Sequence record: OP595145.1
From: Escherichia phage vB_EcoM_DE16
Strand: one strand, 5' to 3'
DNA: 64,000 nt
Shown here piece by piece: positions 50,047-60,721 of this stretch. The notes below the pieces were generated by a model. The model did no database searches and had not been told where the DNA came from. It saw only the letters and a program-made list of their open reading frames with translations. Position 1 is the stretch's first letter. Each line of letters starts with the position of its first letter. The translations under genes were made by a program, and so were the position numbers.

Positions 50047-51249
50047 ATGGCGAAGACGTTAGAACAGTATATAGGAGAATGTAAACCAATAGCGGAAGCT
50101 AAAGGATATGAGATTATAGGGATTGTAGAGCCATTTAAAGGTGTGCACACGAAGATGATCAACTTCTGCCCTAATCATGGGGAGTGGAGAACATCCACAT
50201 TTGCCAATTTTAAACGTGGTAAGTCTGGTTGCCCTGGGTGCAAAAATGAGAAAGCAAGACAAGACAACAGTAAAAACCTAGATTATTACCTTTCGGAATG
50301 TAAGCCTATTGCTGAAGCTAAGGGAATCGAGATTTTAGGCATTAATGGAGAGTTTATAGGTGTACATACAAAGATGATCAACCTTTGTCCTGAGCACGGG
50401 GAATGGCGAACATTAACATTTCATAATCTTAAGGGTGGTAGTGGTTGTCCTAAATGCGGTAACAAAAGATCTAGGAATTCTAAAATACTCCCAGACGATC
50501 AGCACATACAAGACTTCATTAATACAGGAAAGTTTAAAGAGGGTACAATCTTCACTAAAACAGATAAAAAACGAGGCCGCGATTCTTTATGGTGTGTAGA
50601 GTGTCCTACCTGCTCTCACGATGAGTATGTGCAAGCTGGGGTGTGTGATGGTAAGTTTTATGTCGCAGGGAATGACCTTAAACAAGGGAAGATTCCTTGC
50701 CGTTGTGCAACTAACTGTCATTACACAGAAGCCCAGATTACCTATAGGGTAAAAAAGGCAGTAGAAAGGAAAGGGTATATCTGGGTAGGTTGGATCGGGA
50801 AACCGTCTGTAAGATTAGGTAAGTTTAAATATGGATGTAAGAAACATGGGGTACAAATAGGACGTGCCAGTGGTTTGTTAAATCATGGCACTGGTTGTCC
50901 GCAATGTGCTAACCAGACACAACAACAATGTTACATTAACCACATTCATGATGAACAAGGTATTCTCTGTGCTTTGAAATTTGGAATTGCCAATAATAGT
51001 GATCGCCGTATCAAAAAACAAAATAGTCGTAATGTGTTTACTATGAAACAGGTCCAAGTGTGGCACTTCCCTACTGTGAAGCAATGCAAAGATGCAGAGA
51101 AGCGTTGTAAGCGTGTCCTTCACACGGAAGCAGTGAGCAAATATGCTATGCCAGATGGCTACACAGAAACAGTAGAGTTATCTTGCATGGCCTCAATACA
51201 AAACATTTATAAACTTTATGGTGGAACATTACAGGAGGAAACATGTTAG
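50047..51249 (+). CDS. Cys/His-rich protein with tandem ~55-aa zinc-ribbon-like repeats
   Basis: 400 aa; two near-identical modules (ECKPIAEAKG...GVHTKMIN-x-CP-x-HGEWRT-x-TF...GCP-x-CxN) plus further CxxC/CP-x-C pairs. Confidence 0.5.
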   Translation: MAKTLEQYIGECKPIAEAKGYEIIGIVEPFKGVHTKMINFCPNHGEWRTSTFANFKRGKSGCPGCKNEKARQDNSKNLDYYLSECKPIAEAKGIEILGINGEFIGVHTKMINLCPEHGEWRTLTFHNLKGGSGCPKCGNKRSRNSKILPDDQHIQDFINTGKFKEGTIFTKTDKKRGRDSLWCVECPTCSHDEYVQAGVCDGKFYVAGNDLKQGKIPCRCATNCHYTEAQITYRVKKAVERKGYIWVGWIGKPSVRLGKFKYGCKKHGVQIGRASGLLNHGTGCPQCANQTQQQCYINHIHDEQGILCALKFGIANNSDRRIKKQNSRNVFTMKQVQVWHFPTVKQCKDAEKRCKRVLHTEAVSKYAMPDGYTETVELSCMASIQNIYKLYGGTLQEETC

Positions 51250-51621: not shown

Positions 51622-51801
51622 ATGGCACGTTTAGCAGATCATGAAATCTTTAAACCTATTCTGAACCACTATGATGAACTTAAAGCAGTGTTGGATTGTT
51701 ATAGAGAGGATGAAGAACGTTTGGAAGTCAATCTTAAGATAGTTCTGATGAAAGCTTTTCAAGACGGGCAAGCTAAAGTTTTAGAAGGCATGAAAAAATG
51801 A
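51622..51801 (+). CDS. hypothetical small protein
   Basis: Track ORF trimmed to ATG after AAAGGAG; 59 aa. Confidence 0.35.
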   Translation: MARLADHEIFKPILNHYDELKAVLDCYREDEERLEVNLKIVLMKAFQDGQAKVLEGMKK

Positions 51802-52340
51802 GAATAACTGATGAATATGTATTCTTCTTTTCACATAAAGATGTGTTTAGTAATTGGTATATTGCACCCTTTACAGAAACTGAACCAGGTTACAATGAGA
51901 CTTTCTGTTGTGTTGAGCAATATATGATGTGGCGTAAGGCTTTGCTGTTCAAGGATCATGCGATTGCAGCAGCTATCCTTGATCACTCGACTATACGTGA
52001 CAACGAGAGGAAACAAGCTTATTACAAACGTATGGGTAGGGCAGTGTCGGATTTTGATAACAACGTATGGGAAGAGAACCGTGAGCGTATTGTTATGCGA
52101 GGTTTATGCTTGAAATATGTACAGAATCCAGATTTGTATGCAGACTTACACCTTTACCAATACAAAACGTTTGTTGAAGCAAGCCCCTACGATAAGGTTT
52201 ACGGAATTGGAATGGGGATGTATGAACCAGGGGTGCTAAACCCTGCCACCTGGAAAGGGCAGAATCTTTTAGGCAAATATCATAATAAACTGATCGAAAT
52301 ACTTTTCCCAGACAAAATACCGCAAAGACGATATTTGTGA
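51798..52340 (+). CDS. NADAR (YbiA-like) domain protein
   Basis: 180 aa; FFFS...FSNWY, FCCVEQYMMWRKALLF, ASPYDKVYGIGMG follow the NADAR pattern. Confidence 0.55.
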   Translation: MRITDEYVFFFSHKDVFSNWYIAPFTETEPGYNETFCCVEQYMMWRKALLFKDHAIAAAILDHSTIRDNERKQAYYKRMGRAVSDFDNNVWEENRERIVMRGLCLKYVQNPDLYADLHLYQYKTFVEASPYDKVYGIGMGMYEPGVLNPATWKGQNLLGKYHNKLIEILFPDKIPQRRYL

Positions 52341-52395
52341 TATTTTAACTTTTTTCATTTTTAGAACAAAGGTGTCACTTTGTAGCACAGAAATA

Positions 52396-52430
52396 AGGCT
52401 CCTACAGCACCGTAGAGAGCCTATTATTTT
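52396..52430 (+). terminator. terminator-like hairpin after the NADAR gene
   Basis: AGGCTCCTAC-AGCACC-GTAGAGAGCCT imperfect stem followed by ATTATTTT. Confidence 0.45.
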
Positions 52431-52581
52431 GTCCTATACAAACCTTGTCTTTTTCAGTTTGCATCACTAGGATTCGATCTGAGTGGGTTCCTGAAGGTCT
52501 GCCAATAAGATTAAAGGTTATCTCAAATTCCCATTACCTATTATCTCAAAAATCCCTCAAATTATTTAAACTTTTTAAGAA

Positions 52582-52758
52582 TTTACAAAAGTGAAAGTTG
52601 AAAACCAAAATTTAAAGTTTAGGAAAATTATCTTAAAATGTTAGATACAAAACAAAACTCAAAAGTCAAGGAAAATTTTAAAAATTTTGCGCGCCCACAG
52701 TATTTAAAGTTTTTTTGCTTTTACAAAAATGAAAGTACAAAAGCAAAATTTAAAGTTT
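52582..52758. repeat. AT-rich direct repeats (two ~39-bp copies) with embedded TTTAAAGTTT near-palindromes
   Basis: TTTACAAAAGTGAAAGTTGAAAACCAAAATTTAAAGTTT (52582-52620) vs TTTACAAAAATGAAAGTACAAAAGCAAAATTTAAAGTTT (52720-52758). Confidence 0.6.
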
Positions 52759-52807
52759 ACAAAAATTTATGCAGGTGGGAATGAGAAGAGTTCTCATGTG
52801 GAAATGC

Positions 52808-52886
52808 AAATGATAATGATTCGCATTTAGGTTTATAAATGAGATTGATTCTTATTCAATAAGGTAAATGATAATCATTCTCATTT
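52808..52886. promoter_or_regulatory. two Fur-box-like palindromic operators
   Basis: AAATGATAATGATTCGCATTT (52808-52828) and AAATGATAATCATTCTCATTT (52866-52886) vs Fur consensus GATAATGATAATCATTATC; also palindrome AATGAGAAGAGTTCTCATG at ~52779-52797. Confidence 0.45.
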
Positions 52887-53117
52887 AGAGAATGACGCGC
52901 AGGGGCGGTGTTTGTCTCGCGCTCCCGTGTCCCCTCGCCATGTAATAAGAATAACAGATCCAGCCAGGAAAGCAAGCGATTATTTTATCTTTACATTTCT
53001 TTACAAATATATAGCGCCCAGCCTACCGGCGATCAACCTTCCAACCAGCGCCCTGGTATGTTAGCCCCGCCTTTACGCCGTGGGGTGGCGCTTCCTCTTC
53101 TGTATGTAAAACAGTAT

Positions 53118-53160
53118 AAGCCCGATCCCTGGGCTTGTCAAGATTATTTTTTGTTTTCTT
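53118..53160 (+). terminator. terminator-like hairpin at the end of the GC-rich island
   Basis: AAGCCC-GATCCCT-GGGCTT stem then TTTTTTGTTTTCTT 10 nt downstream. Confidence 0.3.
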
Positions 53161-53519
53161 GCCAGGATAGGACACCTAACCAAAAATGCATATCGCCCCG
53201 CGCCCCTGGTGGGATCTTGCTTTCCCCGCCGCCACTGCAAGCCCATAAATAACCATCAGCGAACGGATCAAAGTTTTCTATTTCTTCCACCTTATGATCG
53301 CCCAGGTTGAGAACGGTTTCAACCTTTAAGCCCGTTGCGCTTGCTACCTGGTGCACCGTGCCGCCTTGCCAGCCCAATGAGTGCATAAGGTGTAATGTAG
53401 TATTTGTCATGGTATCGCCCTTTCTTTGTTGTGCGCCCTGGTTGGCGCGGTAGAAAGATGATAGCCGTTTCCTTCATATACAGCAAGCAAAAAGAAAATA
53501 AAAAAGATTGAAAAAGTGG

Positions 53520-53548
53520 TTGACGTTCCTCACCTGGTAGCGTAGTAT
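53520..53548 (+). promoter_or_regulatory. sigma70-like promoter with long leader
   Basis: TTGACG, 17 nt, TAGTAT; ~135-nt leader before ATG 53683. Confidence 0.4.
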
Positions 53549-53682
53549 TCATCTTGTCGAGGGGGCGCGGCACAACGACAATAAACAACAGGAGGGCGCA
53601 ATGTAGGACGGGCAAAGGTGAGGATCTCCATAATCCACCGTCCACCAACAAAAAACATCATTCATCACCTGGAGTTAAAATC

Positions 53683-53880
53683 ATGGCAACATTGCACATA
53701 GTAGCGAAAGCAGGACAAATCAGCGTCGTGGTAAACGGTTTTACTGAGTTCAGTCATCCCCAGGATGATCATGAAACGGTTTTATCTTTTATTGATTCCT
53801 TGTTAGAAATGGGAGTCATTACAGAAGACCAGCACGCTACAAAATGCAAGCGCGTTAATCAAATTGCAGGGATAGAATAA
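53683..53880 (+). CDS. hypothetical early protein
   Basis: Track ORF trimmed to ATG after GGAG; 65 aa. Confidence 0.35.
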   Translation: MATLHIVAKAGQISVVVNGFTEFSHPQDDHETVLSFIDSLLEMGVITEDQHATKCKRVNQIAGIE

Positions 53881-53886
53881 AAAGTA

Positions 53887-53946
53887 TTGACAACAAACAA
53901 CAACCTGATAAGATGTATCACATAGGGCGGGAAGTGGTTTCCCGCT
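53887..53946 (+). promoter_or_regulatory. promoter plus 5'UTR stem-loop cassette
   Basis: TTGACA, 16 nt, TAAGAT; hairpin GGGCGGGAA-GTGG-TTTCCCGC; then AGAGAGATTATCATC-ATG. Confidence 0.5.
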
Positions 53947-53970
53947 CGTAACAGAAGAGAGATTATCATC

Positions 53971-54243
53971 ATGGCATCATATAGCGCAACAATGATCGTA
54001 GCTGGCACAACTGGTAAACCTATGAGCGGTGGCGGATCTTTCGCTAATATCAATATTGACGGGCGTTTATCCCTGGACGCAGCGATTGCCATTGCACGGG
54101 AAACATTTAAAAAAGAATGTAATTTCAATAAGCAAGATTATTTAGGTTTCGCTATTGAAAAAACCGCGCGCTTTGTTGATTATAAAAGCCCGAAAATGAT
54201 CGACACTACACTAAAAGCGCAAGATGTAGCGTTTTTGCTTTAA
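53971..54243 (+). CDS. hypothetical early protein
   Basis: 90 aa; cassette-supplied RBS and ATGGC start. Confidence 0.45.
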   Translation: MASYSATMIVAGTTGKPMSGGGSFANINIDGRLSLDAAIAIARETFKKECNFNKQDYLGFAIEKTARFVDYKSPKMIDTTLKAQDVAFLL

Positions 54244-54246
54244 GGC

Positions 54247-54302
54247 TTGACATTAACGAATAATTTGTTAATATGTTACATAAAGCGGGAATAGTTCCCG
54301 CT
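54247..54302 (+). promoter_or_regulatory. promoter plus 5'UTR stem-loop cassette
   Basis: TTGACA, 16 nt, TAATAT; hairpin AGCGGGAA-TAG-TTCCCGCT. Confidence 0.5.
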
Positions 54303-54319
54303 ATTTGTAAGGTGGTAGA

Positions 54320-54577
54320 ATGTTTTACATCAAATTAAAAGGTCACGTGATCGCGTTCAAAGATAACGCTTTTTACAGATTAGCAAAATATGCGTTAATA
54401 CATCCCCACTATGTTTATATAAGGGGGCGTGATGAAATAAATATCTTTGATCAAACAACATGCGAGAACATCGAGATCCGCAAGGTTGGCGTACGTGACT
54501 ATCGTACATCTTTCTACCCTTGCAAGGATTCAGCAAGTCTTTTTAAAGTATGCCAATTGTTGAAAAAAGGTGGTTAA
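54320..54577 (+). CDS. hypothetical early protein
   Basis: 85 aa; GGTGG RBS. Confidence 0.4.
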   Translation: MFYIKLKGHVIAFKDNAFYRLAKYALIHPHYVYIRGRDEINIFDQTTCENIEIRKVGVRDYRTSFYPCKDSASLFKVCQLLKKGG

Positions 54578-54578
54578 T

Positions 54579-55136
54579 ATGGGCCGCGAATATGTGATCC
54601 AGTCTTGGGTAAAACATGAAGCAGATGATCCGCGCATCATTCCCGATCATCTTATCGATGAATCCACGGGATATAGCGGTGAGCAAATAGGTAACAGATT
54701 AGCACGTAGTAACGGCAACGTAAAAGCGCGTTATGTGCGCCCTGGCTGGCTGGCAAATGGTAACGCTGATTTATCCAGTGCGGAAGATGCGAGCGACGGC
54801 GCGAAAGATAATCCTTTGTACAAAATTGATCCGGCTTTTCGTGTCCTGGATGAATACCCCAGCAAGATAGCGGCGCTCGATCAGGCCCTGGAAAGTAAGC
54901 GCATCACCTGGACCGCTTACAACATGGCAAAAAACGTACTTGATGGTAAATTGATTCAAGCTGAAAGAAAATTAGCCAAAATTGCAGCCATAGCCCAGGA
55001 GGAAGACGAGGAGACAACGGAAGAGGAAGAGTACGAAGAGATCCCGCCGTTGTTGTGTGTTGATGCTTTTCCTGATTATCAGCCGACAGAGGAAGAAAAA
55101 AGGATCGCACTAGAAAACTTTGAAAATAGTCTTTGA
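54579..55136 (+). CDS. hypothetical protein with acidic C-terminal region
   Basis: Track ORF trimmed to ATG after AAAGGTGG; 185 aa. Confidence 0.4.
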   Translation: MGREYVIQSWVKHEADDPRIIPDHLIDESTGYSGEQIGNRLARSNGNVKARYVRPGWLANGNADLSSAEDASDGAKDNPLYKIDPAFRVLDEYPSKIAALDQALESKRITWTAYNMAKNVLDGKLIQAERKLAKIAAIAQEEDEETTEEEEYEEIPPLLCVDAFPDYQPTEEEKRIALENFENSL

Positions 55137-55189
55137 CATATCGCCGCCACTGGCATAATATTTACCACGTAGGGCGGCAATGGTGCCGC
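55134..55189 (+). promoter_or_regulatory. promoter plus 5'UTR stem-loop cassette
   Basis: TTGACA, CATAAT/TAATAT; hairpin GGCGGCA-ATGG-TGCCGC. Confidence 0.5.
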
Positions 55190-55218
55190 TCATAGTGAAA
55201 TTATGCAAGAGGCTTACA

Positions 55219-55314
55219 ATGATTAATAAAGAAAATAGCTTGACGGTTGGAACGATTAACGCTATCATTCTAGCCGTTCCATTTTGGGTTGTAGTAGCGG
55301 CTATTATTTTCTAA
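55219..55314 (+). CDS. small membrane peptide (31 aa), not in supplied ORF track
   Basis: CAAGAGG RBS; MINKENSLTVGTINAIILAVPFWVVVAAIIF. Confidence 0.3.
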   Translation: MINKENSLTVGTINAIILAVPFWVVVAAIIF

Positions 55315-55322
55315 AAATATTC

Positions 55323-55383
55323 TTGACAACGTTTTTTAATCTGATAAGATGTATCACATAGGGCGGCGGAATACTTCCCCGCC
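55323..55383 (+). promoter_or_regulatory. promoter plus 5'UTR stem-loop cassette
   Basis: TTGACA, 16 nt, TAAGAT; hairpin GGGCGGCGGAA-TAC-TTCCCCGCC. Confidence 0.5.
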
Positions 55384-55406
55384 AAAACAAAAAAAAGGGT
55401 AACACA

Positions 55407-55769
55407 ATGAGCAAGCAAATCAATACTATCATGTTTAATCTGGTATCTTTCCGCGATGATATGAAAAATTTACCACGTGAAACGGTTGATATCCATGTTT
55501 CAGCTTATCGCGCCCTTATTGATATGTTACCGCTAAAACGTGATCAACATGCCGCTAATATGATGCTTAATGCTATGCTTAAAAAGATGATTCAAACGGA
55601 TCTTACTCTGGCGTATGAGTATCAAGGGCGCTTATATGCGACTTACAACAAAGCGGTACCTGGTCTGGGAAGTACCGAAGAGTTGCACGGCTTAAACCTG
55701 GATCAAAACACTTGGGATAGTATGCGCCGCGTTATGGTATGGGCCGAAAGCGGTAAAATTTACGAATAA
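55407..55769 (+). CDS. hypothetical early protein
   Basis: 120 aa. Confidence 0.45.
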   Translation: MSKQINTIMFNLVSFRDDMKNLPRETVDIHVSAYRALIDMLPLKRDQHAANMMLNAMLKKMIQTDLTLAYEYQGRLYATYNKAVPGLGSTEELHGLNLDQNTWDSMRRVMVWAESGKIYE

Positions 55770-55775
55770 AAACGG

Positions 55776-55832
55776 TTGACACTGTTTAAACTTCTGGTAT
55801 AGTTTATCACGTAGGGCGGCAATGGTGCCGCC
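55776..55832 (+). promoter_or_regulatory. promoter plus 5'UTR stem-loop cassette
   Basis: TTGACA, 16 nt, TATAGT; hairpin GGCGGC-AATGG-TGCCGCC. Confidence 0.5.
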
Positions 55833-55852
55833 AACAATAAAAGGTTAACATC

Positions 55853-56032
55853 ATGGCTATCATTGCAAAAACTGAGATTATAGGTTTAGATTCGATCCTC
55901 CTGGCTTATGAGGAAACTTTAAAAATGTATGTAGTGACCTATGGTGATTATGTGCGTGAATACGAATACATTGATCTTGCTTTCGAATGTTACATTCGCC
56001 AGGTCAATAAAGCCTATAACGATTATCGTTAA
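55853..56032 (+). CDS. hypothetical small protein (59 aa), not in supplied ORF track
   Basis: AAAGG RBS; ATGGCT start as in other cassette genes. Confidence 0.35.
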   Translation: MAIIAKTEIIGLDSILLAYEETLKMYVVTYGDYVREYEYIDLAFECYIRQVNKAYNDYR

Positions 56033-56051
56033 AAGTTTTAGTCTTATACTA

Positions 56052-56103
56052 TTGACAATGAGTGATAGTATAAGCATAATAACTTTTATCGGGAATACTT
56101 CCC
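56052..56103 (+). promoter_or_regulatory. promoter plus short 5'UTR stem-loop cassette
   Basis: TTGACA, 17 nt, CATAAT; hairpin GGGAA-TAC-TTCCC. Confidence 0.45.
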
Positions 56104-56129
56104 ACTAACCAAAAAGAGAGATTATCATC

Positions 56130-56495
56130 ATGGCTATTAATATCAATGTTTCCGCTTATGCTACCCTGGCTAACACGGCTAAAATTGAATTATCCAGCAT
56201 TGAAGCGGTGCACATTAGCGCCCGTCGCTGGTTTCAACAGTCCTACGGTAACACATATTTTTCTTTAATGGTTGACGTTGAGATCGGCGGTAAACTGATC
56301 GAGGTGGTTAACGTTCCGTTTCAATATGGCTATGGTGATCATTTTGATACCGTCGCCCTGGAAGAATTTAGCAAGGTTATTAATATGGAAGGTAAAGAGT
56401 TTTCACGCGGCGCGTATCTTTCCCGTTTTTGCCGTGACAATGGGATCACTGTATACAGTCATGCGAGCGATGTTAAACGTAAAAAAGATTTATAA
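56130..56495 (+). CDS. hypothetical early protein
   Basis: 121 aa; AGAGAGATTATCATC-ATGGCT. Confidence 0.45.
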   Translation: MAININVSAYATLANTAKIELSSIEAVHISARRWFQQSYGNTYFSLMVDVEIGGKLIEVVNVPFQYGYGDHFDTVALEEFSKVINMEGKEFSRGAYLSRFCRDNGITVYSHASDVKRKKDL

Positions 56496-56501
56496 AAAGC
56501 A

Positions 56502-56560
56502 TTGACAGCACGAATAAAAAGAGTAAACTGTATTACATAGAGAGCGGGAATACTTCCCGC
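56502..56560 (+). promoter_or_regulatory. promoter plus 5'UTR stem-loop cassette
   Basis: TTGACA, 16 nt, TAAACT; hairpin GCGGGAA-TAC-TTCCCGC. Confidence 0.5.
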
Positions 56561-56584
56561 CTCACTGAAAAAGAGATTAATATC

Positions 56585-56824
56585 ATGGCTAAATCAAAAA
56601 TGTTCTTAGGTCACAAAAATAAAACTCATTGGAATGTAAGCCTTTGGATTAATAATGACGAATCATTATATCGGTTGGCGAAAGAATTTATCGCCGCTAA
56701 TACTAATCGTAATGATGCTGCCCGTGATATGATGTTATTCCTGGAACAAACTGGACAAGATAAAACTCCAGACGGTTTCAAGTATAGCACTACAGCGATC
56801 CGCGCCGCGATGGTTGGAATGTAA
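56585..56824 (+). CDS. hypothetical early protein
   Basis: 79 aa. Confidence 0.45.
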   Translation: MAKSKMFLGHKNKTHWNVSLWINNDESLYRLAKEFIAANTNRNDAARDMMLFLEQTGQDKTPDGFKYSTTAIRAAMVGM

Positions 56825-56833
56825 TAAAAACAG

Positions 56834-56893
56834 TTGACAACGTTTAAAATTAGTGTAAGATGTATCACATAGGGCGGGAAGTGGTTTCCCGCC
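56834..56893 (+). promoter_or_regulatory. promoter plus 5'UTR stem-loop cassette
   Basis: TTGACA, 16 nt, TAAGAT; hairpin GGGCGGGAA-GTGG-TTTCCCGCC (same as the 53887 copy). Confidence 0.5.
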
Positions 56894-56914
56894 AAAACAG
56901 AGAGATTAAAGATT

Positions 56915-57142
56915 ATGGCTATCAATATTGTTCGCGTATCCGGCACCGTTGGCACTTCCCAGGTTATTGCAGTTGTAACAAACAAAAAGATTAATGATGT
57001 ATGTGAGATCTTGAATAAGTGGGCTGTTGCTAATTTTGGGGAATATGCAAGCGTCGAGTACATCGAATCCTACCAGGTGCCAACCATCAGCCTAACCGAT
57101 CTCAACGTTGATCGCCTGTTATGCCTGGATGAATTAATCTGA
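56915..57142 (+). CDS. hypothetical early protein
   Basis: 75 aa. Confidence 0.45.
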   Translation: MAINIVRVSGTVGTSQVIAVVTNKKINDVCEILNKWAVANFGEYASVEYIESYQVPTISLTDLNVDRLLCLDELI

Positions 57143-57151
57143 AAAAGATTG

Positions 57152-57207
57152 TTGACACGGGAAAGAAAAAGAGTAAACTGTATTACGTAGGGCGGCAATA
57201 GTGCCGC
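57152..57207 (+). promoter_or_regulatory. promoter plus 5'UTR stem-loop cassette
   Basis: TTGACA, 16 nt, TAAACT; hairpin GGCGGCA-ATAG-TGCCGC. Confidence 0.5.
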
Positions 57208-57232
57208 TCACAACAGAAGAGAGATTATCACG

Positions 57233-57448
57233 ATGGCTAATATCCGTACACTGTTAAAAAATGCAAGTCAAGTTTTATTTTCAGATGACGAGTATTTCAA
57301 TAAAGACATTACAGGCGTAAAAAATCTTAAAGATGTAAAGGATGTGATAGGTATTCGCGGATCTTTACGTAAAGGTGACTACTACGGCAATAAAGTACAA
57401 TATAAATTAAATCAGTCTTATGATTTTACTTTGACAATTATTTCATAA
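57233..57448 (+). CDS. hypothetical early protein
   Basis: 71 aa. Confidence 0.45.
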   Translation: MANIRTLLKNASQVLFSDDEYFNKDITGVKNLKDVKDVIGIRGSLRKGDYYGNKVQYKLNQSYDFTLTIIS

Positions 57449-57454
57449 AACCGC

Positions 57455-57516
57455 TTGCAATCTTAATAAAATAAAGTAAACTGTATTACATCAAGGCGGC
57501 GGAATGGTCCACCGCC
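57455..57516 (+). promoter_or_regulatory. promoter plus 5'UTR stem-loop cassette
   Basis: TTGCAA, 16 nt, TAAACT; hairpin GGCGGCGGA-ATGG-TCCACCGCC. Confidence 0.45.
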
Positions 57517-57540
57517 TAACAAAGAGAAGAGGAAAACACC

Positions 57541-57708
57541 ATGATCACTTTCGCTACCCGTGAAGCCGCTCGCAACGTTGCCCGTAAAGTTAACGCCGCC
57601 AACCTGGGCGCTACGTTTAAAGCACCTGTAAAAGATGAATCAGGGAAATGGATCTTCCCTGGTCTGCGTCATGCTGACAAGTTAGGTACTTTAAGCCTTA
57701 AAAAATAA
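57541..57708 (+). CDS. hypothetical small basic protein (55 aa), not in supplied ORF track
   Basis: AGAGGAAAA RBS; MITFATREAARNVARKVNAANLG... Confidence 0.35.
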   Translation: MITFATREAARNVARKVNAANLGATFKAPVKDESGKWIFPGLRHADKLGTLSLKK

Positions 57709-57711
57709 TCG

Positions 57712-57749
57712 TTGACTTTTCGTTATAGCGCCTTATAATGGGCGCTATA
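57712..57749 (+). promoter_or_regulatory. sigma70-like promoter with -10 box inside a perfect palindrome
   Basis: TTGACT, 16 nt, TATAAT; inverted repeat TATAGCGCC / GGCGCTATA brackets the -10. Confidence 0.45.
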
Positions 57750-57782
57750 GAGAAGAGAAACCACTACTAACAAGGAAACATC

Positions 57783-58004
57783 ATGATCACTTTCGCTATT
57801 GTCGCCGTTGTCGCTGGTCAGGTTTACGTAAACGATACATTCACCACAGAAGACAAGGCCGCAGGAGACATAACCGCCGTTTACAATAAGTGCAAGGCAG
57901 TAGAAAGGATGTTAGCGCCTTGTATGTTAATGAGTGAACGCCAGGACGGGATAACAGTGTTTACTAACATTGAAACAGGGTACCAAATGGTAGTAACAAA
58001 ATAA
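57783..58004 (+). CDS. hypothetical early protein
   Basis: 73 aa; hydrophobic N-terminus MITFAIVAVVAG. Confidence 0.4.
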   Translation: MITFAIVAVVAGQVYVNDTFTTEDKAAGDITAVYNKCKAVERMLAPCMLMSERQDGITVFTNIETGYQMVVTK

Positions 58005-58007
58005 AGC

Positions 58008-58065
58008 TTGACACGGATTTAATTTTCAGTAAACTGTTACACGTAGGGCGGGAATAGTTCCCGCT
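58008..58065 (+). promoter_or_regulatory. promoter plus 5'UTR stem-loop cassette
   Basis: TTGACA, 16 nt, TAAACT; hairpin GGGCGGGAA-TAG-TTCCCGC. Confidence 0.5.
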
Positions 58066-58082
58066 AAAAAGAGAGAAAGACC

Positions 58083-58436
58083 ATGAAAGCACAAAATGCA
58101 ATTAAAGAGTACATCCTTGCCGCTATCGATTTTAATGATTACGGTATTACAACCGAAAAAGAGAAGATCGCGGAATTGATGCGCCGTTTTAATTCAGAGT
58201 ACTGGTACCCTGATAACCAATCACGTTTTAATTATAGTATTGTTAAAGCACTTGCATCATGGTTACAAGGTTTGCCATCAGATATCAATATCGCTTTCGA
58301 ATATTGGGAAATTGATCGCTTGTTAACATCCTGGGGATACATTAAAGAGAATAGCAACGATGATAAAATCCAACGAGAAAGGGAAAATTATTGGCTTTAT
58401 ATTGCAGGCGTGATCCTTGCTTGCTCTTATGAATGA
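58083..58436 (+). CDS. hypothetical early protein
   Basis: 117 aa. Confidence 0.45.
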   Translation: MKAQNAIKEYILAAIDFNDYGITTEKEKIAELMRRFNSEYWYPDNQSRFNYSIVKALASWLQGLPSDINIAFEYWEIDRLLTSWGYIKENSNDDKIQRERENYWLYIAGVILACSYE

Positions 58437-58442
58437 TAAACC

Positions 58443-58496
58443 TTGACAATTTTACAAAACAGTTTAAATTAACAATATAGCGGCAATGGTGCCGCT
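58443..58496 (+). promoter_or_regulatory. promoter plus 5'UTR stem-loop cassette
   Basis: TTGACA, 16 nt, TAAATT; hairpin AGCGGCA-ATGG-TGCCGCT. Confidence 0.5.
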
Positions 58497-58515
58497 CATA
58501 TGAAGAGGAAACAAA

Positions 58516-58662
58516 ATGAATACATCTAATCGCGCAGAAAAAATTCAATCTTCCAAGATCCGCAAGGCCTGGAACGAGGAAGTGATCCGCAAAGGCGACA
58601 AGCGCAATAAAACAAAGCGCGGGAAGAGTGACAAATATAATTGGATGGATTTAGAGGATTAA
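58516..58662 (+). CDS. hypothetical small basic protein (48 aa), not in supplied ORF track
   Basis: GAAGAGGAAA RBS; followed by a strong terminator. Confidence 0.35.
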   Translation: MNTSNRAEKIQSSKIRKAWNEEVIRKGDKRNKTKRGKSDKYNWMDLED

Positions 58663-58668
58663 CATAAC

Positions 58669-58696
58669 AAGGGCGCACCAAGCGCCCTTTCTTTTT
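58669..58696 (+). terminator. rho-independent terminator
   Basis: GGGCGC-ACCAA-GCGCCC hairpin followed by TTTCTTTTTAT. Confidence 0.7.
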
Positions 58697-58717
58697 ATAT
58701 GTAGAGGATAAACAAAG

Positions 58718-58903
58718 ATGACTTTAAACGAGCTTAAAACAGCCTACAACGCAACGTTAAAAATAGCCGTGCGTTACCGTGATGCGTACGGTTTTATCGC
58801 GCAGGGCGTGATCCTGGGCTTTTCTGACGATGGTTTGATCTATGTTGATGCACATCATAACAAGGTAAAACCTGAAAACGTCATTAGCATAAAATATCTT
58901 TAA
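58718..58903 (+). CDS. hypothetical early protein
   Basis: 61 aa; GAGGA RBS. Confidence 0.4.
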   Translation: MTLNELKTAYNATLKIAVRYRDAYGFIAQGVILGFSDDGLIYVDAHHNKVKPENVISIKYL

Positions 58904-58909
58904 AAGTGG

Positions 58910-58969
58910 TTGACACCATAACCGGACCTGTTAAACTGTATTACATCAGGCGGGGAATAGTTCCCCACC
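58910..58969 (+). promoter_or_regulatory. promoter plus 5'UTR stem-loop cassette
   Basis: TTGACA, 16 nt, TAAACT; hairpin GGCGGGGAA-TAG-TTCCCCACC. Confidence 0.5.
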
Positions 58970-58988
58970 ATACAAAAAGGTAAATATT

Positions 58989-59195
58989 ATGATCACAACA
59001 AAACAAGAAAAAATTATTACAGACATTGCCGCAGTAGCCGCTATTGCTATTATTGGTACCTACTATGACACCGCGCGTCCTTCCTCCTTGCATGAGGTCG
59101 CCGCCGTTGCATCAGTTGGCGTACTGTTTTACGTTGGTAAACGCTATTTATCACCAATGATTAACAAGCTGACACCGTGGAAAAATAAAGGTTGA
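58989..59195 (+). CDS. small membrane protein
   Basis: 68 aa; two hydrophobic segments. Confidence 0.4.
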   Translation: MITTKQEKIITDIAAVAAIAIIGTYYDTARPSSLHEVAAVASVGVLFYVGKRYLSPMINKLTPWKNKG

Positions 59196-59250
59196 TCCTG
59201 TTTTATATTGTGTTATAGTTATCGTGTAGGGCGGCAATGGTGCCGCGCCC
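59192..59250 (+). promoter_or_regulatory. promoter plus 5'UTR stem-loop cassette
   Basis: TTGATC, 16 nt, TATAGT; hairpin GGCGGCA-ATGG-TGCCGC then GCCCTTTT. Confidence 0.45.
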
Positions 59251-59266
59251 TTTTGAGGATGCAATC

Positions 59267-59551
59267 ATGAGTAAAGCTAACACCGTGTTAATGTTTTCCC
59301 TAGTTAATGATGCCGCTCACTTGTCCAACATGACGCAGGAGGGTAACACATTAACGGCAACATTCACCAATAAGCTTGACCGAGTGATCATCATCTCACT
59401 GAAAACAGTTAGTAAAGGCTTTTACTCGTTAGCTTATCATTGGATCACCGATACCGATGAGACAAGCCAGGACTATAGCGCCCCTTTCCCTGAATCAATG
59501 GCACGGGAGATCATCGCCGCCGTTGTAAATGATGGTTTGTTTACTGCATAA
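59267..59551 (+). CDS. hypothetical early protein
   Basis: Track ORF trimmed to ATG after GAGGA; 94 aa. Confidence 0.4.
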   Translation: MSKANTVLMFSLVNDAAHLSNMTQEGNTLTATFTNKLDRVIIISLKTVSKGFYSLAYHWITDTDETSQDYSAPFPESMAREIIAAVVNDGLFTA

Positions 59552-59566
59552 AAATTTAGAAAAGGC

Positions 59567-59623
59567 TTGCAATAATTTTGAGATAGTGTATATTTAATTC
59601 ATAGGGCGGCGGGAATAGTTTCC
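59567..59623 (+). promoter_or_regulatory. promoter plus degenerate 5'UTR stem-loop cassette
   Basis: TTGCAA, 16 nt, TATATT; decayed hairpin GGGCGGCGGGAATAGTTTCC. Confidence 0.4.
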
Positions 59624-59646
59624 AAAGCAAACGAGAGGATTACACG

Positions 59647-59766
59647 ATGAGCAAGTACACAGTAGAATACACGGTAGAAAATCCGGCAGTATCCGAAGGT
59701 AAAAAGATGACATTTGCCATCAGTATAATCGCTTTCGTTGTCACTATCTTATCAATCATCTTATAA
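59647..59766 (+). CDS. small membrane peptide (39 aa), not in supplied ORF track
   Basis: GAGAGGA RBS; C-terminal TM segment; coordinates approximate. Confidence 0.3.
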   Translation: MSKYTVEYTVENPAVSEGKKMTFAISIIAFVVTILSIIL

Positions 59767-59776
59767 GGTGCACACC

Positions 59777-59938
59777 ATGAAAACAACAGACATTATCAAA
59801 GAGATCGCCCTTGCCGCTGGCGTTGAAGTCGAGGAAGTGATCGCGCTCAATCTTACAGAAAACGATCTGCGCAACTATGAAGCGGAAAGCGTGAAAGCAA
59901 GCGGCGCGGTCCTGGTATATGATCCGGCTAACAAGTAA
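59777..59938 (+). CDS. hypothetical small protein
   Basis: Track ORF trimmed to ATG after AGGTG; 53 aa. Confidence 0.35.
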   Translation: MKTTDIIKEIALAAGVEVEEVIALNLTENDLRNYEAESVKASGAVLVYDPANK

Positions 59939-59947
59939 GGGGATAAC

Positions 59948-60058
59948 ATGAATCCGAAAGATATGCAAGCATGGAAAGGGTACGACGATCTAAGCGCCTT
60001 GCGCAATAAGTCAAGCCGTAACCTTAGACGGTTGGAAGCAAAGAAAAAGAAAAAATAG
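59948..60058 (+). CDS. hypothetical small basic peptide (36 aa), not in supplied ORF track
   Basis: AAGGGG RBS; Lys-rich C-terminus. Confidence 0.3.
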   Translation: MNPKDMQAWKGYDDLSALRNKSSRNLRRLEAKKKKK

Positions 60059-60059
60059 T

Positions 60060-60115
60060 TTGACAAGTCCGCCTAGTCTGATAATATATATCTTGTAGGG
60101 CGGCAATGGTGCCGC
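60060..60115 (+). promoter_or_regulatory. promoter plus 5'UTR stem-loop cassette
   Basis: TTGACA, 17 nt, TAATAT; hairpin GGGCGGCA-ATGG-TGCCGC. Confidence 0.5.
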
Positions 60116-60136
60116 TCACAAGAAGAGAGAAAAATC

Positions 60137-60421
60137 ATGAAAATCACAAAAAGCCTAACTAATTATGCAGCACGTCGCGGATTATGTTTAACCGTTGAAA
60201 ACTTAGGGAAAGAAGACTTTTTGTGTTTTTGGGAGCTTGAAAATGATTGCGAGTGGATGTTTTCTTATTCTATCTGCGAAGATCAAAACGGTTGTTTGTT
60301 AACCTGGCGCGGTAATATCTATTTACCGGAAGAAATTAAAGAAGAGTTACCAGGTACGATCATGACAGAGAGACAGCTTAAGGAAATGATTAATTTTGTA
60401 GGGCAAAACATTAAAAAATAA
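60137..60421 (+). CDS. hypothetical early protein
   Basis: 94 aa. Confidence 0.45.
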   Translation: MKITKSLTNYAARRGLCLTVENLGKEDFLCFWELENDCEWMFSYSICEDQNGCLLTWRGNIYLPEEIKEELPGTIMTERQLKEMINFVGQNIKK

Positions 60422-60422
60422 T

Positions 60423-60483
60423 TTGACAGCACGCAAACAACGTAGTAAAGTTTACCACATAGGGCGGCGGAATGGTCCACCGC
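60423..60483 (+). promoter_or_regulatory. promoter plus 5'UTR stem-loop cassette
   Basis: TTGACA, 17 nt, TAAAGT; hairpin GGCGGCGG-AATGG-TCCACCGC. Confidence 0.5.
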
Positions 60484-60506
60484 TCACAACAGAAGAGAAA
60501 CAAATC

Positions 60507-60677
60507 ATGATCCCGACTATGTTTTATGTATCGCGCAAAGGTCACAATATTTTTTGGTCTGAAGATTTAAATGAAGCTATGACGTTTGCCCGTGATCGTG
60601 TTGCTATCGGTGGCGTTAACATCACCGTAACCGATGAAAACGGCATTGAATACTATAACGGCGACAATGAAGAGTAA
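60507..60677 (+). CDS. hypothetical small protein
   Basis: Track ORF trimmed to ATG downstream of the cassette; 56 aa. Confidence 0.4.
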   Translation: MIPTMFYVSRKGHNIFWSEDLNEAMTFARDRVAIGGVNITVTDENGIEYYNGDNEE

Positions 60678-60684
60678 TCAACAA

Positions 60685-60702
60685 GGCGGGATTAATCCCG
60701 CC
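60685..60702 (+). other. intergenic palindromic hairpin without promoter boxes
   Basis: GGCGGGAT-TA-ATCCCGCC perfect palindrome. Confidence 0.4.
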
Positions 60703-60721
60703 TGTATTAAAGGGTAATATA

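Follow-up and report, generated by a model that had tools for sequence, protein, structure and literature searches.

Several described systems resemble, each in part, the locus reported here. The RyhB-type small RNAs of Enterobacterales are encoded beside matches to the Fur box consensus, which is given as the 19-bp GATAATGATAATCATTATC or in the 7-1-7 form TGATAATnATTATCA, and multicopy Fur boxes titrate Fur in the Fur titration assay. Transcription-primed replication origins include T4 oriF and oriG and ColE1 RNA II, and the primary origin of T7 consists of two tandem promoters and an AT-rich stretch. The put RNAs of phage HK022 bring about processive antitermination, and the free-standing homing endonuclease genes of large lytic phages are represented by the seg/mob type of T4. 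The rV5-like phage PhiTE carries ToxI/pseudo-ToxI, a pseudoknot RNA (PMC3475682). In T5, the terminal repeat holds an array of palindromes with paired DnaA boxes at its side and 23-bp half-site repeats after it; that description covers the palindromes and repeats and does not mention Fur (Davison, bioRxiv 10.1101/866236).

Here we describe a GC-rich island in Escherichia phage vB_EcoM_DE16 (OP595145.1), studied within a stretch of 64,000 nucleotides, hereafter the window, which sequence comparison places in Phapecoctavirus, among the rV5/phAPEC8-like phages. We read the island (52891-53480) as a leftward early unit in which the gene of a small protein is joined by one for a pseudoknotted small RNA; the RNA gene is widely conserved and unannotated and appears to point toward a row of Fur-like sites. 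An earlier note on this DNA had proposed a Fur-regulated RNA read from the plus strand or, alternatively, an acquired moron. The elements that it listed do exist: among 590-bp stretches of the window the island has the highest GC content (0.502 against 0.394 +/- 0.026, a value reached by only 0.06% of 590-bp windows), the GC content steps from 0.26-0.28 at 52500-52900 to 0.47-0.53 at 52900-53500, and our scans recovered the hairpin and the open reading frames (ORFs) of 17 codons (52892-52945, plus), 114 aa (52908-53252, plus) and 88 aa (53144-53410, minus). From right to left, the features of the locus are the following.

53458..53486, minus strand: P0, predicted sigma-70 promoter of the 88-aa gene (TTGCTG at 53486-53481, 17-nt spacer, TATCAT at 53463-53458)
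53144..53410, minus strand: 88-aa protein gene, from its phrog_19316 match, homologues and codon-position pattern
53113..53141, minus strand: P1, putative sigma-70 promoter (TTGACA, 17-nt spacer, TATACT; 11/12; A-rich tract upstream)
53015..53107, minus strand: RNA1, conserved structured non-coding RNA of ~93 nt, from covariance model R1 and covariation
52987..53007, minus strand: nearly invariant direct repeat TTTGTAAAGAnnTGTAAAGAt with a 10-nt period, between RNA1 and P2, from alignments
52948..52975, minus strand: P2, sigma-70-like leftward promoter (TTGCTT at 52975-52970, 16-nt spacer, TATTCT at 52953-52948)
52886..52943, minus strand: RNA2, putative GC-rich leader of P2, from the alignment; its 3' edge is flush with the first Fur-like box
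52780..52896, no strand: array of four Fur-like palindromes TGAKAATnATTCTCA (at 52782, 52811, 52840 and 52869; 29-bp spacing) plus a half-site
52540..52775, no strand: AT-rich region of GC 0.25; a 72-nt direct repeat occurs in it twice, 138 bp apart
52395..52432, no strand: hairpin AGGCTCCTAC..GTAGAGAGCCT with T-rich tails on both strands, from the sequence; a terminator is annotated here in the phAPEC8 record

The locus shares with RyhB-type genes the pairing of a small non-coding RNA gene with Fur box matches, but here the boxes lie downstream of the RNAs, the promoters are on the minus strand and look like constitutive sigma-70 promoters, and RNA1 has neither a terminator hairpin with a U-tail nor any sequence or Rfam similarity to that type. 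Like ToxI and pseudo-ToxI of PhiTE, which together with the put RNAs exemplify structured phage RNAs that have proteins as targets, RNA1 would be a pseudoknot RNA made during infection from a non-coding stretch of an rV5-like phage; unlike pseudo-ToxI, it is single-copy, GC-rich and unrelated in sequence, and is not a 36-nt tandem repeat. We rejected a link between RNA1 and the PhiTE pseudo-ToxI locus, since the genome position differs; in Certrevirus CB7 the ToxI-like repeats stand at another locus, beside tRNA-Tyr. Tandem promoters directed into an AT-rich, repeat-bearing non-coding stretch, with a structured 5' part of the RNA, recall the T7, T4 and ColE1 origins; here, however, host sigma-70 promoters and a Fur-like array take the place of phage-polymerase promoters or DnaA/initiator sites, and the RNA bears a covarying pseudoknot. 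The likeness to repeat region 3, the injection-stop region of T5-like phages, consists of the palindrome GAATGAGAATCATTCTCATTT, the 29-bp spacing and a long conserved untranslated region, whereas no homologue of RNA1 or RNA2 was seen in the parts of the T5 locus that were read by eye, without model R1.

The 88-aa ORF, which had been offered as the alternative to an RNA, is, judged by its sequence, a genuine conserved protein gene. It matches phrog_19316 over its full length (E 1e-58) and has 21 homologues, all phage proteins, of 86-93 aa, with length conserved at identities down to ~48%; its variable columns are distributed 10/1/14 over the codon positions and stops are absent. The AlphaFold2 model (pLDDT 94) is all-alpha with five helices. 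Searched against the PDB, the model gave no fold match at E<1, the only matches being uncharacterised phage proteins; the sequence pattern indicates a probable helix-turn-helix at residues 18-36. A relationship to DUF7170 was rejected (hhalign probability 8%); a small DUF7170 gene stands in place of the 88-aa gene in Seunavirus and Mydovirus (BIS47, 4MG, Ro1). P0 is built like the rightward early promoters, and is kept in the alignment of anhysbys and phi92; the 5' hairpin GCGCC-AACCAG-GGCGC and the Shine-Dalgarno sequence AAGGG come after it. Within the island, moron-like traits are confined to this gene: a predicted promoter and terminator of its own, patchy presence, and a GC3 of 0.51 against 0.35-0.45 in the neighbouring genes. 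Against this, its homologues are confined to phage proteins, and it is a candidate moron at most.

For the island as a whole, acquisition as a moron is contradicted by its distribution. More than 350 sequenced genomes have a match to an island segment, and the non-coding core is common to two phage subfamilies, on which account the RNA part fails the moron test. The search for a bacterial source covered 5,426 complete E. coli genomes in distant mode, none of which matched, and a pattern of 16 specified bases from the RNA1 core found 94 matches in 185,579 species genomes, scattered and none of them enterobacterial. The two subfamilies and the absence of an E. coli match together point to old resident DNA and no recent acquisition. 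Thus the description of the segment as compositionally foreign is right about its composition and not about its origin. No tRNA or tmRNA genes were found.

Downstream of the 88-aa gene, P1 has the hexamers, the spacing and the drifting spacer of a sigma-70 promoter, and we read it as one. Its hexamers are conserved (at least 9/12, spacer 17-18) in 30/30 distinct homologues whose search window covered the promoter, while the spacer sequences differ; many homologues retain a GC hairpin in the spacer, with a different sequence. P1 shares its build with ~20 rightward early promoters in the window, and the 5' leader of RNA1, ACAUA...ACAGAAGAG, is that of the rightward early mRNAs. The hairpin AAGCCC-GATCCCT-GGGCTT at 53118-53136 lies inside this spacer (on the minus strand AAGCCC-AGGGATC-GGGCTT, 53136-53118). 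A terminator scan flagged it as terminator-like on the minus strand, with the tail ATACTGTTTT, and made no call on the plus strand, where the T-run begins 8 nt past the stem. The plus-strand terminator proposed at 53118-53160 is not supported, its hairpin lying in a promoter spacer; the hairpin with the U-rich -10 region fits best as the putative terminator of the 88-aa gene.

RNA1 begins with a purine-rich 5' end (ACAGAAGAGG) and continues into an H-type pseudoknot (S1 CGCC/GGCG, S2 CCCC/GGGG), a hairpin P3 on its 3' side (CA-U-ACCAG...CUGGU-UG) and, in its 3' part, an invariant single-stranded motif GAAGGUnGAUCGCCGGUAG; GAUCGCCGGUAG is the RNA1 motif. Covariance model R1 has one strong match in the window (98.9 bits) and 42 in related loci. 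A second match in the window, of 17 bits at 14017-14102, was taken as noise. In the alignment 89% of the cells are paired against 21-48% in slid controls, and 10 of the 14 pairs have changes on both sides, values reached by 0/500 shuffles. Both helices of the pseudoknot contribute (2/4 pairs each in S1 and S2): S1 occurs as GCC/GGC and GAC/GUC, S2 as CCCC/GGGG, CCAA/UUGG, CCAU/AUGG and CCAG/CUGG, and P3 as CG/CG, CA/UG, GCAU/AUGC and GCAG/CUGC. The CCCC clade and the ACCAA clade differ by 1 nt in the register of S2, whose changes trace back to few independent events. These compensatory changes in both helices argue that RNA1 is a structured RNA with an H-type pseudoknot, and the covariance analysis that the earlier note had called for bears out its idea that a non-coding RNA, GC-rich and structured, adjoins the Fur-like boxes, the boxes being supported by their own consensus matches. 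Loop 3 of the pseudoknot accommodates a 47-nt insertion in two loci (L016, L041).

The structural claim is drawn from covariation only, since neither RNA1 nor RNA2, folded as either strand, differs significantly in energy from its shuffles (RNA1 z -0.3). RNAalifold alone favours another long-range stem in RNA1, CGGCG/CGCCG, which is without covariation. The assignment of RNA1 to the minus strand follows from its promoter and is to that extent provisional; G.U and A.C cells (2 vs 1) leave the strand undecided. RNA1 has no recognisable terminator, the conserved block not being followed by a hairpin and U-run, and it shows neither the 3' terminator with a U-tail nor the seed for conserved targets that characterise Hfq-dependent trans-acting sRNAs, the 94 genome matches including no enterobacterial site for the invariant motif.

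RNA1 is present in Stephanstirmvirinae and in four Vequintavirinae genera (Certrevirus, Seunavirus, Mydovirus and Henunavirus); model R1 did not find it in the one Vequintavirus (rV5-type) locus tested, that of TP4. Three distant contigs (L027, L100 and L114) carry RNA1 without Fur-like boxes, which indicates an independent module. In enterobacterial phages it is always linked to P2, the repeat array and AT-rich repeats, so that a role in cis fits at least as well as one in trans. Searches of Rfam 15 with 2.5 kb (E<=10) gave nothing within 52900-53140, and for a 271-nt stretch the only match was Bp1_684, at 11.9 bits against a gathering score of 44, with no RyhB. The 3' motif of RNA1, the RNA2 loop and the 5' leader were compared with one E. 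coli rrn operon (16S, 23S, 5S and three tRNAs), and their complementary runs of 9-10 nt lay within the shuffled range (median 8-11). No further copy or target of the RNA1 motif rose above chance within the window. Our literature searches turned up neither this RNA nor its locus, and for these phages neither Fur boxes nor transcriptomes.

The invariant motif of RNA1 is interrupted in phage Ro1 by a gene for an HNH endonuclease (phrog_953, E 8e-79). The cassette brings its own P1-like promoter and a second, complete copy of RNA1 from another clade, in which the target motif is changed (canonical GATCGCCGGTAG vs variant AATCGCCGGCAG). An insertion paired with a complete copy argues for a need of intact RNA1. 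As with the seg/mob type of T4, the gene sits at the most conserved target sequence with flanks from another lineage; the difference is that the target is a non-coding RNA gene and that a full replacement copy with an altered target motif comes along.

Beyond RNA1, the direct repeat TTTGTAAAGAnnTGTAAAGAt could be either a UP-like element or a factor-binding site. The pattern TTGnnn-16/17-TATnnT occurs at the position of P2, 10-13 nt before ACAT(G/A)GCG, in most of the 30 distinct homologues; in the five rows from Phapecoctavirus and Justusliebigvirus, the window included, the scoring preferred an upstream site and P2, which is weaker there, was read by eye. RNA2 is strongly conserved in sequence. 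Its outer stem, AUGGCG../..CGCGUCAU, surrounds a hairpin with the invariant loop GAGACAAnCACC and is paired in 86% of cells against 22-53% when slid, with a change on both sides in one pair only and values that do not exceed shuffles. The inner hairpin differs in register from clade to clade and RNAalifold returned no consensus for RNA2; on these grounds no firm RNA2 structure is claimed, and the outer stem is at most weakly supported. G.U cells in the stem outnumber A.C cells (25 vs 12), which favours the minus strand. A small ATG inside RNA2 is not conserved.

RNA2 would end exactly where the Fur-like array begins. The palindromes are spaced at exactly 29 bp and accompanied by the extra half-site GAGAATGAC at 52888-52896. 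Against the E. coli 19-mer, positions 52864-52882 score highest, with 16/19 where chance predicts 0.05 such matches per window, and four 15-mers lie 1-2 mismatches from TGAGAATnATTCTCA, all other matches in the window being at 3 mismatches. By match to these consensus strings we take them as putative Fur boxes of the E. coli type. The number of copies in relatives ranges from 1 to 5 and invariably includes the box adjoining RNA2, whose consensus is GAATGAGAATCATTCTCATTT; across phages of Enterobacterales hosts the box sequence is far better conserved than its flanks. The boxes do not cover the conserved promoters: P1 and P2 lie 55-250 nt upstream, the boxes starting at about +50 of P2. An extra leftward promoter just past the boxes is visible in Mydovirus and Seunavirus and weak in the window. 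The AT-rich region beyond is conserved in Stephanstirmvirinae, other genera having different repeats at the same position; its sub-motifs are confined to this locus within the window, and leftward transcripts may reach it as a cis-acting stretch of DNA, perhaps an origin or DUE. DnaA boxes near the locus and TRF tandem repeats were sought and not found. The hairpin at 52395-52432 terminates the upstream plus-strand genes and likely forms the outer limit of leftward transcripts.

Taken together, these features suggest the following order of events. Host sigma-70 RNA polymerase would start at P0 and make the mRNA for the 88-aa helical, helix-turn-helix-like protein, and this transcript would stop at the hairpin embedded in P1. 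P1 would then give the ~93-nt RNA1, with its pseudoknot and hairpin and with GAAGGUnGAUCGCCGGUAG left unpaired, and P2 the GC-rich leader RNA2, ending exactly at the start of the Fur-like array. We propose for RNA1 a role in trans, as an early RNA present in abundance whose pseudoknot and invariant single strand are recognised by a host or phage protein, the protein-bound RNA serving as a decoy, cofactor or regulator. Iron-loaded Fur on the array would limit extension of the P1 and P2 transcripts into the AT-rich repeats. This whole model, in which rV5/phAPEC8-like phages have long carried the unit, is our preferred reading, and we advance it tentatively, at somewhat less than even chances. 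RNA1 is a good candidate for a function in early host takeover, anti-defence or replication, since it appears promoter-driven, has a covarying pseudoknot, occurs in two subfamilies, and is the target of a homing endonuclease that travels with a spare copy.

The main rival to a trans-acting RNA is a transcription-primed replication origin, in which the P1 and P2 transcripts cross the box array into the AT-rich, iteron-like repeats and form an R-loop that primes or activates leading-strand synthesis, with RNA1 and RNA2 as the structured segments at the 5' side of this primer or activator. Across genera, even those with different repeats, P1-RNA1 is followed by P2-RNA2, then by the repeat array and the AT-rich repeats; the repeat motifs occur only at this locus in the window, the minus strand downstream is without ORFs, and the RNA strand is G-rich (plus-strand GC skew -0.15 to -0.23). 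In T5-like phages, moreover, the same array adjoins DnaA boxes, within conserved non-coding sequence for which a resemblance to oriC has been noted. Yet our locus has no DnaA boxes, the switch in gene orientation and GC skew of the window lies elsewhere, at ~46 kb, away from the island, RNA1 occurs in distant contigs without boxes, and a covarying pseudoknot with an invariant single strand is less usual in a primer than in an RNA that binds a protein or ligand. We regard an origin as rather unlikely.

RNA1 might instead be a leader acting in cis, either by modifying RNA polymerase, as put RNAs do, or as a two-fold switch between pseudoknot S1 and the long-range CGGCG/CGCCG stem that governs whether transcription continues beyond the RNA2 hairpin and the Fur array. 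An early promoter immediately precedes RNA1, and hairpins and a protein-binding array follow it, which would suit this, as would the two mutually exclusive pairings of the GGCG segment. However, the alternative stem does not covary, and contig L027 breaks it and retains S1. Nor is there a downstream gene to control: the minus strand at 52855-52389 has no ORF >=30 aa, and neither RNA has the downstream gene or expression platform of a riboswitch or cis-regulatory leader. P2, standing between RNA1 and its presumed targets, would moreover limit any effect in cis to P1 transcripts. A cis-acting leader is in our judgement improbable.

The fixed position of the RNAs beside the array raises the question of whether virulent coliphages make use of the host iron regulator. 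RNA1, RNA2, the Fur-like array and the AT-rich repeats could form a single iron-sensing module, of a kind not described before, with Fur as an iron-dependent roadblock: Fur bound in 29-bp register, a short way downstream of the two early promoters, would decide between short RNAs and run-on into the repeats, which would trigger replication or another switch. This is a speculation to which we give little weight; if it were true, the T5-like array would mean that unrelated virulent coliphages sense host iron through Fur at a key cis-acting site.

Replicating phage DNA might also act as a sponge that titrates host Fur and derepresses iron uptake, nrdHIEF and similar genes, the RNAs being unrelated neighbours. 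One to five near-consensus boxes, more conserved than their flanks, are kept across Enterobacterales hosts, and unrelated T5-like phages share the array and its 29-bp spacing; a sponge, however, leaves the constant abutment of the proximal box on RNA2 unexplained and does not address the island itself, and we consider it quite improbable as an account of the locus.

The earlier note's own reading, a Fur-repressed promoter in the array driving a RyhB-like iron-responsive RNA from the plus strand (52895-53140) up to the 53118-53136 hairpin, can draw on real and conserved Fur-like boxes, a weak -10-like GAGAAT at 52888-52893, a covariation that fits the complementary strand equally and a terminator-like site (CGCCGTGGGGTGGCG then CTTCCTCTTC) flagged at 53076-53090 (plus), but it is very improbable: alignment reading found no conserved plus-strand promoter and no conserved -35, the conserved P1 and P2 are on the minus strand and would fire toward boxes that lie downstream of the RNAs, its supposed terminator is the spacer of a minus-strand promoter kept in 30/30 homologues, the G.U cells of the RNA2 stem favour the minus strand, RNA1 occurs without boxes in distant relatives, and neither RyhB nor any other Rfam family matches. 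The two plus-strand ORFs do not survive comparison either. The start codon of the 17-codon ORF is ATA in CR3 and BIS47, and frameshifts or stops interrupt the 114-aa ORF even in phAPEC8 and phi92; this ORF has no Pfam or PHROG matches.

The rV5/phAPEC8/phi92/PVP-SE1-like myoviruses are common therapy and biocontrol phages, and at minimum the present analysis corrects their annotation and adds a candidate RNA family. In the phage records inspected, RNA1 is either unannotated or masked by a spurious 'hypothetical protein' on the wrong strand (phAPEC8_00257), and the records of CR3 and SSE121 leave the 88-aa gene unannotated.

The GC-rich island at 52891-53480 is an early unit read leftward. It comprises a small gene, a segment that is both terminator and promoter, the gene of a new structured RNA, and a second promoter whose leader is conserved. 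The unit adjoins a Fur-like array; it is ancestral in a large group of phages and is without a host counterpart. We infer its transcription, its RNA ends, Fur binding and function. GC content rises from 0.26-0.28 at 52500-52900 to 0.47-0.53 at 52900-53500, the switch that the earlier note had seen to the right of the boxes, and only 0.06% of all 590-bp windows across the 64 kb (mean 0.394, sd 0.026) are as GC-rich as the island (GC 0.502). Three ORFs, the hairpin AAGCCC-GATCCCT-GGGCTT (53118-53136) and Fur boxes left of the island are likewise present as described; the boxes are four palindromes, the best matching the E. coli Fur 19-mer at 16/19 positions (chance expectation 0.05). For the region 52600-53700 there are 144 matching phage records, with identity reaching 98%; almost all are Phapecoctavirus and Justusliebigvirus, phAPEC8-/phi92-like myoviruses of ~150 kb in the subfamily Stephanstirmvirinae. 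The island lies in a ~1.1-kb gap between a left gene cluster and a long run of small genes from 53.5 kb, each preceded by a sigma-70 promoter close to consensus, a 5′ hairpin of stereotyped form and a purine-rich ribosome-binding site. Flanking genes on both sides run rightward; the window switches strand at ~46 kb.

Features of the locus, by window coordinate
51798-52340, plus strand: NADAR-domain protein gene, last of the left cluster
~52395-52432: terminator closing the left cluster
52782, 52811, 52840 and 52869: Fur-like palindromes TGAKAATnATTCTCA, spaced exactly 29 bp
52975-52948, minus strand: P2, predicted promoter, TTGCTT-16-TATTCT
53015-53107, minus strand: RNA1, the one strong match in the window to its covariance model R1 (98.9 bits)
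53141 (TTGACA), 17-nt spacer, 53113 (TATACT), minus strand: P1, predicted promoter, 11/12 in the promoter scan
53144-53410, minus strand: 88-aa protein gene, phrog_19316
53486-53458, minus strand: P0, predicted promoter of the 88-aa gene, TTGCTG-17-TATCAT
52908-53252, plus strand: 114-aa ORF, phAPEC8_00257 in JX561091.1

On the minus strand of the alignment, a block with nearly invariant stretches, ACAUACAGAAGAGGAAGCGCCACCCCACGGCGUAAAGGCGGGGCUAACAUACCAGGGCGCUGGUUGGAAGGUUGAUCGCCGGUAG, comes after P1. R1 has 42 matches in related loci (L-numbers below), and the sequence variation is compensatory. Helix S1 changes from GCC/GGC to GAC/GUC in L027. Helix S2 pairs the S1 loop with a downstream segment, forming an H-type pseudoknot, and reads CCCC/GGGG in most members, CCAA/UUGG in pEa55, L016 and L032, CCAU/AUGG in L027, CCAG/CUGG in L020 and, with one wobble pair, CUCC/GGGG in 4MG. 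Hairpin P3 shows CG/CG versus CA/UG in its lower stem, and also GCAU/AUGC versus GCAG/CUGC; its apical part varies in length, and pseudoknot loop 3 carries a 47-nt insertion of small hairpins in L016 and L041. In the model-based alignment, fitted to S1 and P3, 89% of cells are paired and 10 of 14 pairs change on both sides. The observed values (paired cells, pairs and cells changed on both sides, covariation score) were not attained in any of 500 shuffles, and sliding the partners by 1-3 columns leaves just 21-48% of cells paired. The S2 changes derive from a handful of events, with a 1-nt difference in register between the CCCC and ACCAA clades. RNA1 does not fold more stably than shuffled sequence, and no Rfam family matches it. 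RNAalifold alone gave a long-range stem between CGGCG and the invariant CGCCG, which shows no covariation and is broken in L027. The segment GAAGGUnGAUCGCCGGUAG, 3′ of P3, is unpaired in the supported structure and invariant except in the two copies of phage Ro1.

Covariation alone does not fix the strand of RNA1 (two G.U cells versus one A.C cell). The argument for the minus strand is the promoter: RNA1 is predicted to be transcribed leftward because P1 is conserved, precedes the block by 7-11 nt and is of one class with the ~20 rightward early promoters; RNA1 would also start with the ACAUA...ACAGAAGAG leader that the rightward early mRNAs have. Among homologues where the search window fell on the promoter, all 30 distinct sequences have a P1 counterpart at the same place, scoring at least 9/12 with a 17-18-nt spacer. 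An A-rich tract lies upstream of P1, and its spacer is the hairpin at 53118-53136. Spacer sequence differs among the 30, many of which retain a different GC hairpin (GCCCC..GGGGC, CCCCG..CGGGG, ACCAGGC..GCCTGGT, GCCCG..CGGGC). The earlier note had taken this hairpin for a plus-strand terminator; on that strand the T-run does not begin until 8 nt past the stem, and the scan that found P1 called a terminator-like site on the minus strand only, with tail ATACTGTTTT. Since the 88-aa ORF stops at 53144, just before P1, the simplest reading is that the 88-aa transcript ends at the hairpin together with the U-rich -10 region and that the same DNA doubles as P1. Promoter-terminator coupling is widespread in bacteria according to a recent preprint (10.64898/2026.08.19.745784).

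Raoultella phage Ro1 (MG250486.1, L013 750-1600) has two R1 matches. The first copy is normal up to GGAUCGC, then diverges (UGGUACAACG...) and continues into a Shine-Dalgarno (SD) sequence and a 197-aa ORF of HNH endonuclease family phrog_953 (E 8e-79), inserted within the invariant motif. Beyond the HNH gene there is a new P1-like promoter, whose spacer again holds a GC hairpin, and then a second, complete RNA1 of the CCAA/UUGG clade, with intact P3 architecture and an altered 3′ motif (AAUCGCCGGCAG), followed by the usual TTTGTAAAGA repeat, P2, the RNA2 segment and boxes. It looks as if a free-standing homing endonuclease gene entered the most conserved site of RNA1 together with a replacement copy that would probably resist cleavage, a specificity we infer. 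Retention of an intact copy argues for a functional RNA1. HNH genes are also present in SSE121 and FBKp34, immediately to the left of this locus.

RNA1 and P2 are separated by a direct repeat, TTTGTAAAGAnnTGTAAAGA, that hardly varies. In most of 30 distinct sequences a P2 counterpart (TTGnnn-16/17-TATnnT) lies equally far from ACAU(G/A)GCG; in the window's clade the scoring script favoured an upstream site, and the weaker homologous P2 was read from the alignment. The GC-rich segment predicted to be transcribed from it, RNA2 (52943-52886), contains the invariant GAGACAAnCACC and in every phage ends exactly at the first Fur-like box, ..GUCAUUCU directly followed by nnAAAUGAGAAU... Pairing in its outer stem reaches 86%, compared with 22-53% after sliding, and an excess of G.U over A.C cells (25 versus 12) would mildly favour the minus strand. 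We regard RNA2 as a conserved leader but assign it no firm fold, because only one pair of the outer stem changes on both sides, shuffles are not exceeded and RNAalifold gives no consensus.

The boxes number one in SSE121 and pEa55, two in BIS47 and 4MG, three in FBKp34 and KaOmega, four in the window and CR3, and five in phi92, and the 29-bp spacing recurs among relatives. The distant contig L114 has other repeats where the boxes would be, and Vequintavirus (typing phage 4) is without RNA1 and has two tandem modules of promoter, GC-rich segment and box. Left of the boxes, GC content is 0.25, and two 72-nt direct repeats lie 138 bp apart (52540-52775), their sub-motifs found nowhere else in the window. 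These repeats are common to Stephanstirmvirinae, and different ones occupy the same place in other genera, for example unrelated repeats (..ACGTTTTnnAAAnTGAAAAnTCGATCGAGAACCG..) in Seunavirus and Mydovirus (the L006/L009/L010 equivalents). Such replacement of AT-rich, locus-specific repeats is iteron-like. Just beyond the boxes, Mydovirus and Seunavirus have a third leftward promoter, for which the window offers a weak candidate only; no minus-strand ORFs and no DnaA boxes were found left of the boxes.

We tentatively rank first the reading of RNA1 as a trans-acting, protein-binding early RNA, because it has a pseudoknot and an invariant single strand, because distant relatives carry it independently of the boxes and because Ro1 keeps a spare copy. 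Small structured RNAs encoded by phages are already known as a class. That the locus is a transcription-primed origin is a doubtful possibility, and it best accounts for why promoters, bound repeats and AT-rich repeats keep a fixed order; the two readings are not mutually exclusive, and both could hold. It is unlikely that RNA1 is a cis-acting leader, and still less likely that the boxes act as a Fur sponge, a reading that concerns the boxes only. The Fur-repressed plus-strand small RNA of the earlier note is improbable: in the alignment no conserved plus-strand promoter was found left of the RNA1 block. No description of the RNA1 family, the locus architecture or the Fur-like array link was found in Rfam or searchable papers. 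A specialist would want RNA1 tested, and the Fur/T5 connection could open a new question.

The same Fur-like palindrome, GAATGAGAATCATTCTCATTT, recurs in T5-like phages, again spaced 29 bp, within the terminal repeat (injection-stop 'repeat region 3'), as in Salmonella phage Kenya-K36 (L260, OQ291033.1) at 1190-1400 and in H85-H89 and H112-H121. After it come 23-bp half-site repeats with a DnaA box, TTATCCACA. A paper on this T5 region (Davison, bioRxiv 10.1101/866236) describes the palindromes and DnaA boxes, with Fur unmentioned.

Searched in distant mode, the non-coding core (52770-53145) matched 357 phage records. Identity is 68-78% in Certrevirus (CR3, KaOmega), Seunavirus (SSE121, 4MG, EC152, EspYZU14), Mydovirus (BIS47, Ro1) and Henunavirus (pEa_SNUABM_55), where the match lies wholly or largely within un-annotated gaps of up to ~1 kb; a shorter part matches Vequintavirus (typing phage 4, rV5-type) at ~74%. 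Scans of viral and metagenome contigs added more distant members. The island had no match in 5,426 complete E. coli genomes, and a core pattern of 16 specified bases, searched in one genome per bacterial species, gave scattered chance matches, none in Enterobacterales. By these searches the island is not host DNA. The core is older and more constant than the 88-aa gene, since that gene is missing from several core-bearing phages: BIS47, 4MG, EC152 and Ro1 have a 61-aa DUF7170 gene on the same strand in its place, and CR3 and SSE121 have no annotated gene there.

The 88-aa ORF, the alternative offered by the earlier note, is a real gene. It matches phrog_19316 end to end (E 1e-58) and has 21 homologues in public protein data (86-93 aa, identity down to ~48%), Serratia phage Kashira's among them; seven close relatives have 10/1/14 variable columns at codon positions 1/2/3 and no stop codons. 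P0, a 5′ hairpin and an SD are all conserved in anhysbys and phi92. AlphaFold2 with the homologue alignment gave a confident five-helix model (pLDDT 94), without a significant match among solved structures; its structure matches are uncharacterised phage proteins only. Residues 18-36 (TVHQVASATGLKVETVLNL) would, in our own reading, fit a classical helix-turn-helix pattern. The two plus-strand ORFs did not hold up as genes: the 114-aa frame, which has no family match, is frameshifted or stopped even in phAPEC8 itself and phi92, and the 17-codon ORF has ATA for ATG in CR3, KaOmega, BIS47, 4MG and EC152. Annotation of the locus differs between records, with the non-conserved plus-strand ORF in phAPEC8, the minus-strand 88-aa gene in anhysbys and phi92, none in several public records and six 'hypothetical proteins' over 1.1 kb in PsgM04F.

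To the right, ~20 near-consensus sigma-70 promoters (TTGACA-16/17-TAAnAT) lie on the plus strand at 53887-63300, one small gene behind each, sharing a leader with the hairpin (A/G)TAGGGCGGnAATnGTnCCGCY and then the SD ACAGAAGAGAG. Part of this element is labelled 'PHIRE promoter' in the phAPEC8 record. The inverted repeat might stabilise the RNA, or act in the DNA as the operator of some regulator, for example the helix-turn-helix-like 88-aa protein. At 53520-53607, also on the plus strand, a promoter (TTGACG-17-TAGTAT) and 5′ hairpin precede AGGAGGGCGCAATGTAG, a strong SD with a start codon directly before a stop; this start-stop mini-ORF is ~80 nt upstream of a 65-aa gene at 53683. Elsewhere, 50047-51249 on the plus strand encodes a 400-aa protein built from recurring zinc-ribbon-like units (CPxHGEW...CPxC/CPGC). 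Among the matching records, near-identical Phapecoctavirus and rV5-like genomes carry implausible host names (Campylobacter, Acinetobacter, Pseudomonas coronafaciens), probably through contamination or mislabelling in the source records. ToxI-like 36-nt repeats, the antitoxin RNA of a type III system, have matches in 200 phage records, of which 163 are from Klebsiella phages; in Pectobacterium phage CB7 (L259, 4001-4064) they lie beside tRNA-Tyr, away from the studied locus.
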